From the NCBI GenBank assembly GCA_965220085.1, contig CBDCOZ010000003.1, forward strand, positions 128,001-192,000: a stretch of DNA of 64,000 bases, read 5' to 3'. The notes beneath the pieces were generated by a model. That model ran no database searches. It had not been told where the DNA came from and saw only the letters and a list, made by a program, of their open reading frames with translations. A program made the position numbers and the translations under genes. Origin of the DNA: Candidatus Oxydemutatoraceae bacterium (lineage in GTDB: Bacteria; Pseudomonadota; Gammaproteobacteria; Poriferisulfidales; Oxydemutatoraceae). Shown piece after piece: positions 345-41,594 of this stretch (positions are counted from its first letter, which is position 1; every line of letters starts with the position of its first letter).

Positions 345-1395
345 ATGAATAAACAGATTTTTAATATACTACTCTTCAGAGGAAGCGACCCAATGTGTCG
401 CGCCCTGCTAGGCAAAAGCATGAATAGCGAGATTATTAATACTACCCCCCCCCCCCCCCCCCCCCCCCCCCCTGCATTGGCGGGTAGCACGAACCCGGCT
501 TAGCCTCTTACCGCTTCTTCTGCTCGCCCTGTTCGCAGTCTGCGAACCGGCACAGGCGCAGAACGCCGCCGGCGAACCAGCGGTAACTGCGGCCTTTTCT
601 ACTCAAGCTCTTACGGCTCATCAACAGAACGCCACCGGCGAGCCGGCGGTAACGGCGGCGGATGGCGCCGATTTGACGATGGTGGGACCCAATGAGGACA
701 GCCTGCTCACCGCCACCACGGGCACCATCATGGACCCCGATGTCATAAGCGCTTTAGCCGCCTGGCAATGGGGAATGGCCGACACCAGTGACGGCACCTA
801 CGCCAACATAGACGGGGCCACTGCCGCCACCTTTACGCCCCTGCAGGAGCATGTCGGCAAATTTCTGCAAGCCTGCGGTGCCTTTTTGGATAATACCGGC
901 GCCCTCGAGATTTTGTGCTGGAACTCCGTCGCCGCAGTTGCCAATGTCAACGATGCCCCGACGGCTACCGACAACACCATAATGGTGTCCAATACCGCCG
1001 ATGCCGACAACCCCTACAAATTCTCGGCCAGCGCCTTCGCCTTTGCCGATGAGGAGGATGGCGACAGTCTGGCCAGCGTCACCATAGTGACCCTGCCAAC
1101 CACCGGCACCCTGAGTCTGAATGGCACGGCCCTGAGCGCCGTCCCCGAAAGTCCCATAACCGCCGCCCAGCTGGAGGCGGGCGCTCTGACCTACTATCCG
1201 GCGGCCGACCAACAGCCCACCGACCCCTCCGCCGCCGCCTACGACAGTTTCACATTCCGCGTGACCGACGATGGCGACCAGCCCGATGCCGACACCGACA
1301 CCACCAGCGCCAACGCCGCTACCATGAGCATCCGCCTGGCAGTAGGACACCTGCGCTTGCGCTTGCGCCTCTTTCTTGAAGGCCCGTTGCGGTAG
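345..1395 (+). CDS. Phase-variable tagged secreted protein (Ig-like then cadherin-like module); frameshifted at C28 as assembled
   Basis: AGGAG RBS, ATG 345, leader MNKQIFNILL...MNSEIINTTPPP, C28 at 445-472. Removing one C joins it to LHWRVARTRLSLLPLLLLALFAVCEPAQA (signal peptide) and ORF 673-1395, which ends LRLRLRLFLEGPLR. Confidence 0.85.
445..472 (+). repeat. Poly-C tract (C28), slipped-strand switch
   Basis: Direct count; lies between leader and signal peptide. Confidence 0.9.
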
Positions 1396-1461
1396 CGGGG
1401 CCAACCTGCATCTCTTCTCGCACCATTGTGATGACTCCCCCGCAAGGGGAGTGCGGTTGGC

Positions 1462-1663
1462 GTAACCCCGAAACTTTCCTTCGCCGCATCTCGCCGCCTG
1501 CGGCTCGGCCTGCGATGCGCCCGCGAGGGGCGGGTGTGGCTTGGTCTCTGCGGGGTGCGCACGGTCGGTGTAACCCCGAAACTTTCCTTCGCCGCATCTC
1601 GCCGCCTGCGGCTCGGCCTGCGATGCGCCCGCGAGGGGCGGGTGTTGCTTGGCCTCTGCGGGG
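1462..1663. repeat. Tandem direct repeat, 108-bp period, 2 copies
   Basis: gtaaccccgaaactttccttcgccgcatctcgccg... at 1462 and 1570. Confidence 0.9.
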
Positions 1664-1916
1664 AGCGGCGGTCAGGGGGAGCGATATATGCGAATGTGGC
1701 ATAGAATACACAGGCGATGCAAAGAGTTTTCTATCCATCTATTTTGATTACGATGTCTGCGGCGTGTGCTACGCGTGAGTGCGCCGGTCGGTCGTCGTCT
1801 TTGACAATTTTGATTACGGCGACCGCCGCATGCGTTGCGCGTAATTTTTTGCCGGGCCGAAGCGCTGCGGCGTTGCGGTCGACCGCTGTGAAGAGAAACC
1901 GACTCGGTGATTGACG

Positions 1917-3455
1917 ATGCTGATCACGCAACTTCCAAGGATATTAAAAATAAACATGGTTTTGATAAACCGCGGGCTGGATGAGATCGTGCTCAAGATT
2001 CCGTTCTTGCGCCCGGCGCATTTTCTCTTTCATCTGATGCCGTGGAATTGGTTCGGTCGCAAGAAGCAGCCGCTTGCGGTGCGCATACGGCTCGGGCTTG
2101 AGGACTTGGGGCCGATCTTTGTCAAGTTCGGTCAAATGCTGTCGACCCGTCCCGATCTGTTGCCCGAGGATGTCATTGCCGAGTTGTCAAAACTGCAGGA
2201 CAAGGTGCCGCCGTTTGCCGAAGAAGCGGCGCGACAGATTATCGAGAAGCGGCTCGGCGACAAGGCGGAGAATGTCTTCCGGCAGTTTGACTCCGCGCCG
2301 TTGGCGTCGGCTTCGATCGCACAGGTGCACGCTGCGGCGCTTAAAAGCGGCGAGTCGGTTGTCGTCAAGGTGTTGCGCCCCGCCGTGCGCAAGGTCATCC
2401 GCCGTGATATAGAACTCTTGCACACGATGGCGCGGATGGCGGAGCGGTATTTCCCGCAATCCCGCAGGTTGCATCCGGCGGATGTCGTCGCCGAGTATGA
2501 GAAGACCCTGATGAACGAGATCGACCTGTTGCGCGAGGCGGCCAATGCGAGCCAGTTGCGGCGCAACTTTGATAACTCTCCGTTGCTTTATATACCGCGC
2601 GTCTATTGGGATTATTGCCACAGCGATGTCATTGTGATGGAGCGAATTTACGGTATTCCGGTCAACGACACGGAGCGGCTGAAGGCGGCGGGCATCAATC
2701 TGAAGAAGCTCGCCGAGACCGGCGTGGAGATTTTTTTCACGCAAGTGTTTCGCGATAATTTTTTCCATGCCGATATGCACCCCGGCAATATCATGGTGTC
2801 CGCCGAATCGCCGGACAACCCGCAATATCTCGGCGTTGATTTTGGCATCGTCGGCACGCTGGCCGCCGAAGACCAGCGCTACCTTGCGGCCAATTTTCTG
2901 GCATTTTTCAATCACGATTATCGGCAAGTCGCCAGACTGCACATCCGTTCCGGCTGGGTGCCGGCGGATACCCGCGAGGACGAACTTGAGGCGGCGGTGC
3001 GCACGGTGTGCGAGCCGATCTTTCAGCAGCCTTTGAGCCGCATATCGTTCGGGCTTCTGTTGTTGCGCCTGATCAAGGTCGCCCGCCAGTTCAATATGGA
3101 GGTGCAACCCCAACTGGTGCTGTTGCAGAAAACACTGCTCAATATAGAGGGGCTTGGCCGGCAGATTTATCCGGATTTGGATTTGTGGGATACGGCCAAG
3201 CCGTTTCTTGAGCGGTGGATGGCGCAGCGCCGGGACCCGAGGGTCTTGGCCAAGAAACTCGCGCGGCGCTTGCCCGAGATCATCGAGCAACTCGTCGATC
3301 CCAAGGGCGCGTTCCCGATGACAGCGGCGGCGCCGCCGACAGACACGCGCGACATCGCAAGGTTGCAACGCGAGATCGCGGTATTGCGGCGGGTCATTGT
3401 CGCGGTCGTTGTCATCGCCGCGCTCGGTCTTGCCATCGCGTATTGGCATGGATAG
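1917..3455 (+). CDS. ubiB: Ubiquinone biosynthesis protein kinase UbiB
   Basis: [43 protein letters not shown] motifs; C-terminal TM. Confidence 0.95.
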
Positions 3456-39410: not shown

Positions 39411-39665
39411 TCGGGAATTATATATTTAACTCGGCAAATAGCGGATAGCATCGGCATATGCGGGATACGCTTGCTCTCCGCCCGGCCGACAACGGAAGCT
39501 GTTGCAAATGGCGATGTTTCATCGCTGTTTTCAGCGGTGAGAGTTTTGTCACGACCGCACATATGCAAGGGCATTTTTTCTTGTAAGCAGGCATTCTGTC
39601 GGATATAATCTGCCAGATTGTATAATCATCTTCTGACTAGAATACTCATTACTACGAGAATACAT

Positions 39666-39941
39666 ATGTCTATATTCACAGTTATAAGTTTGGCTGATGG
39701 CGATCCGGTCTCTTTGCGTCAAAAAATTGAAGAAAAATATCCCGATAATTATATCCCAGCGGCAAGGAGGACATCGCCTTTATACGTTCTAATGAAACGA
39801 CATCCGAAATTGCGGGGAAATCTGGGAATGAACGTAAAAAGCAAGATACTTGGCGTGGTAATTAAGCATGAAACATGGTATGGATTTTCCGATCTCGAAT
39901 TGTGGGATTGGGGCAATAAGGTAACAACAGGTGCGCAATAG
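39666..39941 (+). CDS. Small low-GC hypothetical protein
   Basis: ORF in an AT-rich patch; no recognised motif. Confidence 0.4.
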   Translation: MSIFTVISLADGDPVSLRQKIEEKYPDNYIPAARRTSPLYVLMKRHPKLRGNLGMNVKSKILGVVIKHETWYGFSDLELWDWGNKVTTGAQ

Positions 39942-40167
39942 CCGCCTAAAATCTGTTCGGTCATCTCCCGCCGGAGAACCGGGAACGGGCGGCGGAGGCG
40001 GCGGACATGGAAATGGGTTTGCGCAACTTTCCCAGCGGCTGACTGTTATAGAAACAGAAACGAAGTATGTGGCAACCAAAGATGATTTATCCGCCGCTTT
40101 ATCCAAAGCAATCAAAGGAGCAGAAAACAAAAAACATTCGATGGGGATTTGTGATAGGATACGCATC

Positions 40168-41594
40168 ATGACTCTTGACCTTTTCATTTGCGCGCGCGAT
40201 TCAAATCTTCTTCAGAAGGTTAATCAAATCTTCTGCGGAAGGTTAAAAACCCTCGCCGCGTTTTTTAACGCCGCACAGCGCCGCGCAGCCGCATTAGCGC
40301 CCGTTTCCCCCCCCCCCCCCCCCCCCCCCCTCCCCGTGCGCTTAGAGTCTGTGCGGCGGTAATACTCGCCGGCGCATTTGCAAACAGCGCGTACGCGCAA
40401 ACCGAATGTGCGGCGGACAAGCCGCTGATGAACGAAGGCGTGTGCGTTGCCAGTTGTCCGTCGGGACGGGAAGCTGTTGGCGGAACTTGCCACGCTGTCT
40501 GCGCAGCAGGGGAGACGCGAGTCACGCGTCCGGACATCCCAAGCTCCACCGGATGCTTTGCCGATGCCACGGCCAAAATGCTGAGCGATTGCGAAGCCGC
40601 GGGATGGGGGAGTCGGACGGCTATCTTGTCGGATTTCTTCCAACTCGGAACGGGCTGTCTGATTCCCTCAAGACAGGTGGGCCACACGTCCGCGAGGCAG
40701 TGCAAAACCACTTTGGGATTTGCTTCGTTTCCGTTCTGCACGGACATGTACGGCGACCCGCCGGTCTTTCCGAAAGCGGCGGACCATACCGATGTTAGAA
40801 TAGGTTCCGGAAAGCGTTTTGTTGCAAACTGCAACCGAGACGGGACTGTCCCCGGCGGTTATCCGCCGAACCACAACTTGAACGGCGAAACCGAATGCAT
40901 ATGCCATCGGGATTCGCACGTCGGCGACTGGCCGGACTGCGCGGCCTTTCCGGTCAGTCTGACGGCGGCGGATAGGGCGATGGCGCAGACATGTGTGGCG
41001 CAAGGGTGGACTATTTCCACCGCCACCGCCGCCTCTATCAAATGCGACATTCCGCTGACCTCCGGCGAGGATACTTTTGACGGGTGCTTTCTCGGCGGTC
41101 AGGATTCGCCGCTGTGCGCGGATGTTTTTGGCGCGGGGTTCGCCCTGCCGGAAAGGGAGGTTCCGCAGTTGGTTTTGAATCTTGCCAACGCCTTTGACGC
41201 AAAGTTTAGCGAACGGCTTGGCGATGCTGTCAGAGCCGCCGCGCCGGTTTACGCGGAGGCGGTATGGGCGCGACACAACGGCGATCCGAATTATGCGGCC
41301 GGCCCTATCAACACCCACAACAGCAACAGCGATGCCGACAAAAGCAACATTGCCGTTCAGGTTGCGGCTCCGGTTTTCACGGCGCATGGAATTCCTTTTA
41401 ACTGGGGGCTGGATGTCTCGCGGATTCCGGCTGCGATTCGGTTGGCGTACGGTCGTATTCCGGTGGCGGTGCCGTATGTTTTCAATTGCGGGGAGGGCAT
41501 GATTCCGGCGGGTGCGAATCTGAATGGCGCGACGGAATGCGTTTCAGGCTTGCGCTTGCGGCTGCGCCTCTTTCTTGAAGGCCCGTTGCGATAG
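40168..41594 (+). CDS. Tagged Cys-rich secreted protein with a different leader; frameshifted at C24
   Basis: C24 at 40307-40330 precedes RALRVCAAVILAGAFANSAYA. The body frame has stops upstream at 40221 and 40266; the open leader frame needs C22 or C25. Start codon uncertain. Confidence 0.75.

Follow-up and report, generated by a model that had tools for sequence, protein, structure and literature searches.

Poly-C tracts between leader and signal peptide as candidate ON/OFF switches in a tagged gene super-family of a sponge-symbiont relative

Six genes in a 64-kb stretch of a Candidatus Oxydemutatoraceae genome (GenBank assembly GCA_965220085.1, contig CBDCOZ010000003.1, positions 128,001 to 192,000 of the forward strand) carry a long run of cytosines where a short leader passes into a signal peptide, which raises the question of whether the length of these runs decides if the genes are expressed. 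We analysed this stretch (hereafter the window; 57.0% G+C) together with its source genome (G000; 2,492,841 bp, 3 contigs, 99% complete) and genomes of the same order. A homopolymer scan of the window returned exactly six runs of at least 9 nucleotides (nt), all of them C/G and 13-28 nt long, and no A/T run of at least 9 nt. The C13 pattern has 49 overlapping matches in the window, all within the six tracts, against 0.03 expected from 100 dinucleotide shuffles. Because the two runs that appear as G22 and G15 on the plus strand belong to genes on the minus strand, all six tracts are poly-C on the coding strand. We consider it probable that heritable switching at the DNA level by slipped-strand mispairing is the main effect of these tracts.

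The six loci share one layout, namely a leader that opens with an ATG behind a Shine-Dalgarno (SD) sequence, a C tract that begins 25-139 nt downstream of the start codon, and a long open reading frame (ORF) that ends in the C-terminal tag (L/M)RLRLRL(F/I)FLEGPLR followed by a stop codon. The sequence AGGAG precedes the ATGs of loci 1-5 (345, 22444, 24343, 29820 and 31427) by 7-8 nt, and each leader frame is open into the tract. At locus 1 on the plus strand (SD 8 nt upstream), the leader (345-444) contains further in-frame ATGs at 393 and 420 within two stacked MNxQxxNT modules and is followed by C28 (445-472), which is one nucleotide too long, and by an ORF of 306 codons plus stop (475-1395) with a signal-peptide core and the tag LRLRLFLEGPLR. 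Locus 2, on the minus strand, has a leader (22351-22444) with a second ATG at 22375 and a decayed short C run in its first module, a tract of 22 nt (22329-22350, G22 on the plus strand), and an ORF of 294 codons plus stop (21444-22328) that again begins with a signal-peptide core. Locus 3, on the same strand, consists of the leader MNRQIFNT (24319-24343), a tract of 15 nt (24304-24318, G15 on the plus strand) and an ORF of 414 codons plus stop (23059-24303) with a 333-nt internal tandem duplication. The remaining loci lie on the plus strand. Locus 4 has a leader (29820-29916) with a second ATG at 29892 and a hairpin GCGAC-N7-GTCGC (29857-29873) between its two modules, followed by C13 (29917-29929) and the rest of an ORF for a Cys-rich secreted protein (29930-31202, stop included). 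The leader of locus 5 (31427-31523) is identical to that of locus 4 over the 100 nt before the tract, and its C19 (31524-31542) is followed by T-CCCC-T and by an ORF of 424 codons plus stop (31545-32819) with 80% amino acid (aa) identity to locus 4. At locus 6, a longer leader of 46 codons (40168-40306; ATG 40168, with AGGA 10 nt upstream) leads into C24 (40307-40330) and an ORF of 420 codons plus stop (40332-41594), 88% identical to locus 4 at the aa level.

Reading the frames from the SD-led ATGs showed that C13 of locus 4 is the sole tract of the six that joins leader and body; it encodes Pro4 within the leader and yields a 460-aa ORF (29820-31199, stop 31200-31202). At loci 1, 2, 3, 5 and 6 the leader frame stops after 52, 47, 20, 43 and 64 codons, respectively, with the stop codon at 501-503 in locus 1, at 22301-22303 in locus 2 and at 40360-40362 in locus 6. 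A change of 1 nt restores each of these genes, the restoring lengths being 27, 23, 14, 18 and 25 in the same order. Of the three frames behind each tract, one stays open for 294-424 codons and the other two close within 3-25 codons. No ATG, GTG or TTG lies between tract and hydrophobic core at any of the six window loci, so whether the body is translated hinges on the reading frame of the ribosome as it exits the tract. The original prediction, made by hand, had placed tracts of these lengths at these positions between leader and signal peptide, had called only C13 in frame, had derived the five restoring lengths and had described the out-of-frame genes as free of other lesions; our scan and frame reading reproduced every one of these points. 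At the sequence level, the tracts show several features that mark loci of translational phase variation by homopolymers: a G/C run of about 8 nt or more inside an ORF near its 5′ end, an early stop when the run is off register, rescue of the otherwise intact ORF by a change of 1-2 nt, and no start codon that bypasses the run. Loci 4 and 5 have upstream flanks that are 100% identical over 100 nt, yet one carries C13 and the other C19. The anatomy, the frames, the intact ORFs and the lack of a bypass start can be read directly from the sequence, and so can the recurrence of the system across the genome and the clade.

Genome-wide, we counted 86 C/G runs of 10-28 nt (median 19, maximum 28), 4 of 9 nt and 10 of 8 nt, and no A/T run longer than 9 nt; tract lengths are bimodal, long or absent. 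Of the 86 runs, 85 directly precede an ORF of at least 161 codons whose beginning resembles a signal peptide; in every case the coding strand carries the C, and 68 of these 85 loci have no ATG, GTG or TTG between tract and core. When 9 kb was scanned behind each tract, 81 of the 85 ORFs were uninterrupted to the tag. Because these 81 genes, including the five out-of-frame genes of the window, contain no stop, we argue that their frame is in use for at least some of the time. Control C/G runs of 7, 8 and 9 nt lie inside open frames in 48 of 112, 6 of 10 and 1 of 4 cases, respectively. A context scan of the 186 tagged ORFs of at least 150 aa found 74 with a tract, 98 tract-less ORFs with an in-frame Met and core, and 14 with no recognisable N-terminus. 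The sequence supports the switch architecture of the combinatorial repertoire that had been proposed, but the family would be gated only in part, since about 98 of the 186 tagged paralogues carry no tract and have their N-terminus in frame.

Among the 85 tracts, the consensus length is in frame in 21 (95% confidence interval 16-35%), one nucleotide too long in 41 and two nucleotides too long in 23. These phases bear on the possibility that the tracts are in truth all in frame, or of one fixed length, and serve as poly-Pro linkers, with the frameshifts being assembly errors. Long-read consensus sequences err mainly in long homopolymers, the genome is in 3 contigs, and its named relatives are long-read metagenome-assembled genomes, all of which would suit such an artefact. 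Errors scattered around truly in-frame lengths would leave the in-frame class the commonest, and it is the smallest: besides 21 of 85 overall, only 3 of the 16 short tracts (11-15 nt), for which the consensus should be at its most reliable, and 3 of the 23 tracts of a poly-G family in a related genome (G022, described below) are in frame. All ten long housekeeping ORFs tested in the window match their families (10/10), with UvrD, IleS, GlyS, TopA and Acs aligned across essentially the whole profile, which indicates that consensus quality is good in general, and a Pro linker is dispensable, as the tract-less paralogues show. We regard an artefact of this kind, which the original prediction had itself named as the outcome that would overturn it, as quite improbable.

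The leaders of loci 1-5 end in a short AT-rich module, M-N/K-x-Q-x-F/I-N-T, and the tract starts 25 nt past the ATG of that module. Loci 1, 2, 4 and 5 carry two such modules in a stack, the first with a decayed C run, an arrangement suggestive of the addition of entire 5′ cassettes at the tract through recombination or duplication. Across the 32 loci with the 25-nt module, G accounts for about 7% of the leader bases, against a genomic G+C content of 56%. The tract was predicted to be unpaired in the mRNA at all four loci folded (4/4). In the tract-less paralogues, the leader is read straight into the signal peptide (for example MNRQIFNTAPHWRATL...), which indicates that the two are one translational unit, with the tract as an insertion. 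A paralogue of this kind, a fixed ON form with the N-terminus MSNRQNAHARQITAGLL... in one frame, lies directly upstream of locus 3 on the minus strand (24805-25770).

Promoter-like sites were found at least 115 nt upstream of the leader ATGs of loci 2, 4 and 5, and the distance from such sites to the tracts is 115-145 nt or more. Locus 4 has TTGCGA-16-(TG)TATAGT at 29676-29703 on the plus strand, 117 nt upstream of its start, the same sequence occurs at 31283-31310 (plus strand) ahead of locus 5, and TTGCAA-16-TG-TATAGT lies at 22860-22887 on the minus strand ahead of locus 2. Because these sites stand upstream of SD, ATG and tract, the tract should be transcribed and translated rather than serve as a promoter spacer. 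The alternative would be transcriptional control, in which the tract lies in a promoter or 5′ untranslated region, acts through spacer length or Rho loading, and is followed by the true translation start. Poly-C promoter spacers are known elsewhere (work cited in PMC5084427), some tracts in relatives precede a Met-initiated signal peptide (locus L030 is one), and 15 of the 85 loci in G000 have an ATG after the tract. All six window loci lack a start codon there and have SD and ATG upstream with a leader frame that runs open into the tract, and the promoter-like sites are well upstream of the leader; we therefore consider transcriptional control extremely improbable. A promoter-spacer switch of the fim, opc or vlp type was rejected for the same arrangement, with the tract placed after SD and ATG.

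The leader of locus 6 differs from the others in that it is not of the MNxQxFNT type; it belongs to a second, longer class that 7 other loci of the genome share. These class-2 leaders (40190-40306 in the window; L089-L095 elsewhere) contain a conserved hairpin with the arms AAUCUUC and GAAGGUU around a 4-nt loop, and this CUUC-loop-GAAG hairpin is duplicated in the window copy. Folding of the window leader is predicted to be strong (z -5.5) and covariation is weak, with compensatory changes in 3 of 22 pairs. Judging from these sequences, the class-2 leader may have a second role as an RNA element beside that of a leader ORF.

What the tracts would gate is a very large protein family. The body frames first encode a run of basic residues, then a hydrophobic core and, behind it, AQA-like sites. 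Matches to Pfam and NCBIfam profiles stayed below threshold and comprised a cadherin-like profile at locus 1, CshA-repeat and ZirU profiles at loci 2 and 3 (both at locus 2, CshA-repeat at locus 3), and a furin-like Cys-rich profile at loci 4-6. For the Cys-rich family, an AlphaFold model built from 19 sequences (predicted local distance difference test 68.8, predicted template modelling score 0.43) gave no Foldseek match in the PDB at E <= 0.001. The extended signal peptide region of type V secretion (ESPR, Pfam PF13018) was sought in two proteins, the in-frame one at full length and a paralogue that lacks a tract, and neither matched its profile at E <= 1. From their build, we infer that the tract-gated proteins are secreted or surface-exposed and adhesin-like.

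The tag followed by a stop codon occurs 214 times in the genome, with the pattern hydrophobic-R-L-R-L-R-L/I/V-F-L-E-G-P-L-R; in the window it ends at about 137, 1392, 21447, 23062, 24808, 31199, 32816 and 41591. The 186 tagged ORFs of at least 150 aa cover 19.6% of the genome, and 28 of the 214 are shorter than 150 aa. Codons within the tag vary freely at synonymous positions (TTC/TTT, GAA/GAG, GGC/GGG, CGA/CGG), so the tag is conserved at the protein level. It may be an undescribed sorting signal. Models of sorting domains in NCBIfam and Pfam (PEP-CTERM, GlyGly-CTERM, the T9SS C-terminal domain, LPXTG and others) gave no match at E <= 0.1 in six proteins, although short motifs can escape hidden Markov model scans, and our literature searches for the tag motif found no paper containing it. 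Outside the window, arrays of tag-only ORFs (22-51 aa, spaced by 156-168 nt) occur on the third contig of the genome (G000:C3) at about 513700-514250, 908950-909500 and 1303750-1303950; they may be remnants or spare 3′ cassettes. A search for homologous proteins returned 22 matches, 21 of them from this genome, and the one from elsewhere (P0006) has nothing but the core in common and carries no tag. The public gene calls for locus 6 (P0002) and locus 5 (P0003) begin at an internal Met (MNEGVCV...) and lose leader and signal peptide, which is an annotation artefact caused by the tracts.

The window also contains near-perfect tandem duplications with periods of 39-283 nt, most in about 2-2.8 copies and one of 172 nt in 5 copies, which are 89-100% identical (mostly 95-100%). 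They lie at 34629-35496, 1454-1667, 5512-6389, 14144-14487, 17859-18051, 22498-22591 and 43140-43675, some of them at gene ends, and the 172-nt array repeats a promoter-like hexamer pair.

Long C runs are not confined to this genome. Runs of at least 12 nt occur in 27 of 41 genomes of the same order, G000 included: in 15 of the 18 other members of its family, in 11 of 11 genomes of a second family, in none of 10 genomes of a third (0.9-1.2 Mb in size) and not in the single genome of a fourth (0/1). Five relatives carry 8-45 tracts of at least 12 nt each, up to C70. Among the tracts of relatives is that at G008:C1:1321696 (L033), and the fragmented assembly G016 has tracts at contig ends. In G001, G003 and G008 the tract contexts are diverse, and a long ORF follows about 13 of 30 sampled loci. 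The exact tag is present in 15 copies in G011 and in 1-2 copies in three other genomes of one genus of the Candidatus Porisulfidus type, on large proteins; it is absent from the remaining 36 relatives, and a control with the reversed pattern gave 0. The Candidatus Porisulfidus group is used as an outgroup to SUP05 in one paper and listed among known sponge symbionts in the abstract of another. A scan of genome contigs for a second strain gave no match to the in-frame protein, and a scan of metagenome contigs for the leader end plus C11 gave only 9 unrelated contigs of low GC.

In G022, from the second family, we examined all 45 tracts. Of these, 23 share an SD-ATG, a leader of about 23 residues (MTKNLSVSEIRAALR...SSSSRI), a poly-G run of 16-27 nt and the core HSLRFLTVLAG... 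(for example L053 and L071-L084), with ORFs of at least 429 codons wherever enough DNA was fetched. Three of the 23 are in frame (phases 3/9/11), and the leader is unrelated to those of G000. Six further loci carry poly-C before another signal-peptide family, about 3 of the 6 in frame. Counted over the 85 tracts of G000 and these 29 of G022, in-frame lengths make up 27 of 114 (two-sided binomial p = 0.029 for a departure from one third, a test that kinship among loci overstates). With a non-homologous leader, the other nucleotide and an unchanged position, the poly-G family suggests that the layout as such is what selection favours.

This recurrence also bears on the view that the tracts are neutral hot spots in a decaying, recently expanded family, spread with a duplicated 5′ cassette, and that many copies are dead. 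The family is huge and recent, with 214 tags and its 28 short remnants; paralogues have a synonymous divergence (dS) of 0.10-0.32 and a ratio of nonsynonymous to synonymous substitution (dN/dS) of 0.64-0.75, and the stacked leader modules show decay. Such a history would hardly leave an uninterrupted frame to the tag in 81 of 85 tract genes, a tag held at the protein level under free synonymous variation, tract lengths that are either long or absent, and a non-homologous poly-G family with the same layout in G022. We judge neutral decay to be very improbable.

Compared with known systems, slipped-strand switching in G000 would follow an established principle in an unusual form. In Neisseria, opa genes carry CTCTT repeats in the signal-peptide coding region and pilC carries poly-G in the same region, with repeats of about 8-14 nt. 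As there, a hypermutable repeat lies within the cleaved leader and signal-peptide coding part, the frame sets ON or OFF, several paralogues per genome would switch independently and the mature protein is untouched by repeat length. Unlike there, the repeat here is a C11-28 homopolymer that precedes the core and stands behind a dedicated AT-rich leader, some 85 loci in 2.5 Mb carry one, the proteins are unrelated and bear a C-terminal tag, the bearer is a sponge-symbiont relative rather than a mucosal pathogen, and switching is deduced from sequence. The vlp genes of Mycoplasma hyorhinis are controlled transcriptionally by poly-A promoter tracts that act through spacer length; they resemble the present family as surface proteins with a conserved 5′ cassette, variable bodies, a homopolymer for each member and combinatorial mosaics, and differ in that the tract described here is translated. 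The Gardnerella gene nanH3 has a poly-C tract of 8-14 nt after its signal peptide, and clone libraries held 11-14 C within colonies, according to excerpts of bioRxiv 10.1101/2020.09.16.300947. On that account, both systems place poly-C in the 5′ coding region by the signal peptide, and in both an off-register tract makes annotation miss the signal peptide; the nanH3 case concerns a single gene whose tract lies behind the signal peptide, unlike the many genes here, known from consensus sequence, in which the tract precedes the core. The phasomes of Campylobacter and N. meningitidis comprise dozens of G/C homopolymer loci per small genome and are enriched for surface functions (excerpts of PMC6321876 and PMC5084427); as described there, they involve many unrelated genes with shorter tracts, unlike the 81 of 85 loci here that fall into one tag-defined super-family with a common leader cassette. 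The principle is thus known from opa, pilC and nanH3, and what sets the present case apart is the tract length, the position before the core and behind a G-poor leader, the number of loci, the single tagged super-family and the lineage. Literature searches for contingency loci, homopolymeric tracts or phase variation in sponge symbionts found no relevant paper.

Under the slipped-strand reading, transcription would begin from a promoter over 100 nt ahead of the leader, and translation would proceed from the SD-led ATG through the short AT-rich, G-poor leader into the C run. At an in-frame length the run would be read as 4-9 prolines, after which the ribosome would translate the signal peptide, with its n- and h-regions, and then the mature protein. 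Cleavage at an AQA-type site would take off the leader and the prolines together with the signal peptide and so make the mature product independent of tract length. At other lengths a stop 4-25 codons behind the tract would leave only a peptide of 20-64 aa. Slipped-strand mispairing during replication would alter the run by at least 1 nt at high frequency, each gene would flip ON and OFF independently and heritably, and the population would be a mosaic of tagged secreted or surface proteins. Both MutS and MutL are intact, so tract length would be the sole source of mutability, and loss of mismatch repair was rejected as an explanation. EF-P, which poly-Pro requires, and Rho are both encoded in the genome, and the unpaired poly-C RNA may help Rho to terminate untranslated OFF transcripts. 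Slippage of RNA polymerase or ribosome on 13-28 C may make the states leaky rather than binary.

Such slippage during decoding could also be the main determinant, through realignment of the RNA polymerase hybrid or +1/-1 shifts of prolyl-tRNA on CCC-C, in which case any DNA length would give a low, noisy and perhaps EF-P-dependent output. Slippage by +1 at CCC-C is controlled by EF-P and m1G37; the runs far exceed the 9-bp hybrid, every codon in them is the slippery CCC, and the tract is predicted to be single-stranded. Intact ORFs behind out-of-frame tracts also fit constant low expression, and the class that a +1 shift would rescue is in excess (41 of the 85 tracts). The poly-G family of G022, with its phases of 3/9/11, has no such excess, and a fixed programmed shift predicts one conserved phase instead of the 21/41/23 found; programmed transcriptional slippage or ribosomal frameshifting of the dnaX or insertion-sequence type was rejected because neither the 85 loci nor the family in G022 has a fixed frame relation. 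A/T repeats are allegedly more prone than G/C repeats to transcriptional slippage, as stated in excerpts of PMC5084427, which would also count against it. Since replication slippage is expected at such lengths in any case, decoding slippage probably adds to a DNA switch rather than replacing it, and as the main determinant we hold it unlikely. A bolder version, to which we give little credence, treats the tracts as stochastic decoders with three levels and a fifth of the genome under their control: replication slippage would set a short-lived length, and slippage of RNA polymerase and, most importantly, +1 movement of prolyl-tRNA on CCC-C would let out-of-frame genes be read at a low rate that depends on EF-P and tRNA modification; the excess of tracts one nucleotide too long would be a selected 'poised' state, and poly-C a Rho entry site that erases untranslated messages. 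If it were true, the symbiont would have a physiologically tunable frameshift rheostat for its surface coat.

Several observations weigh against heritable slipped-strand switching as the main effect, or limit how far it can be taken. The three phases are uneven (chi-square p = 0.014), which simple random slippage does not explain. Expression could bypass the tract at the 15 loci with an in-frame ATG ahead of the core. The intact MutS and MutL leave the genome without a general mutator background. Flank identity of at least 90% on both sides was found for only 4 paralogue pairs, whose tract lengths are equal in 2 and unequal in the other 2. The dN/dS values indicate weak constraint only. Variation of tract length within the population is something that we infer, as the public contigs (3 Logan runs from one study) break at the tracts; over 22001-41000 they end at or next to tracts, with spurious joints between tracts. 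Long-read consensus lengths of homopolymers of 19-28 nt may be off by one, and we therefore trust the statistics above any individual ON/OFF call.

Contingency loci based on slippage are a textbook feature of a handful of host-adapted pathogens. Here they would occur in a gammaproteobacterium related to the Candidatus Porisulfidus sponge symbionts, and in a form more extreme than usual, with about 85 loci, a median tract of 19 nt and a super-family that takes up about 20% of the genome and carries an undescribed tag. That the G022 lineage builds this layout from poly-G and an unrelated leader suggests a strategy common to the clade. For annotation, the consequence is that automatic gene calls truncate tract genes, which lose their signal peptides. 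If the switching is real, it would offer a concrete, testable mechanism for surface variation under host phagocytosis or phage pressure.

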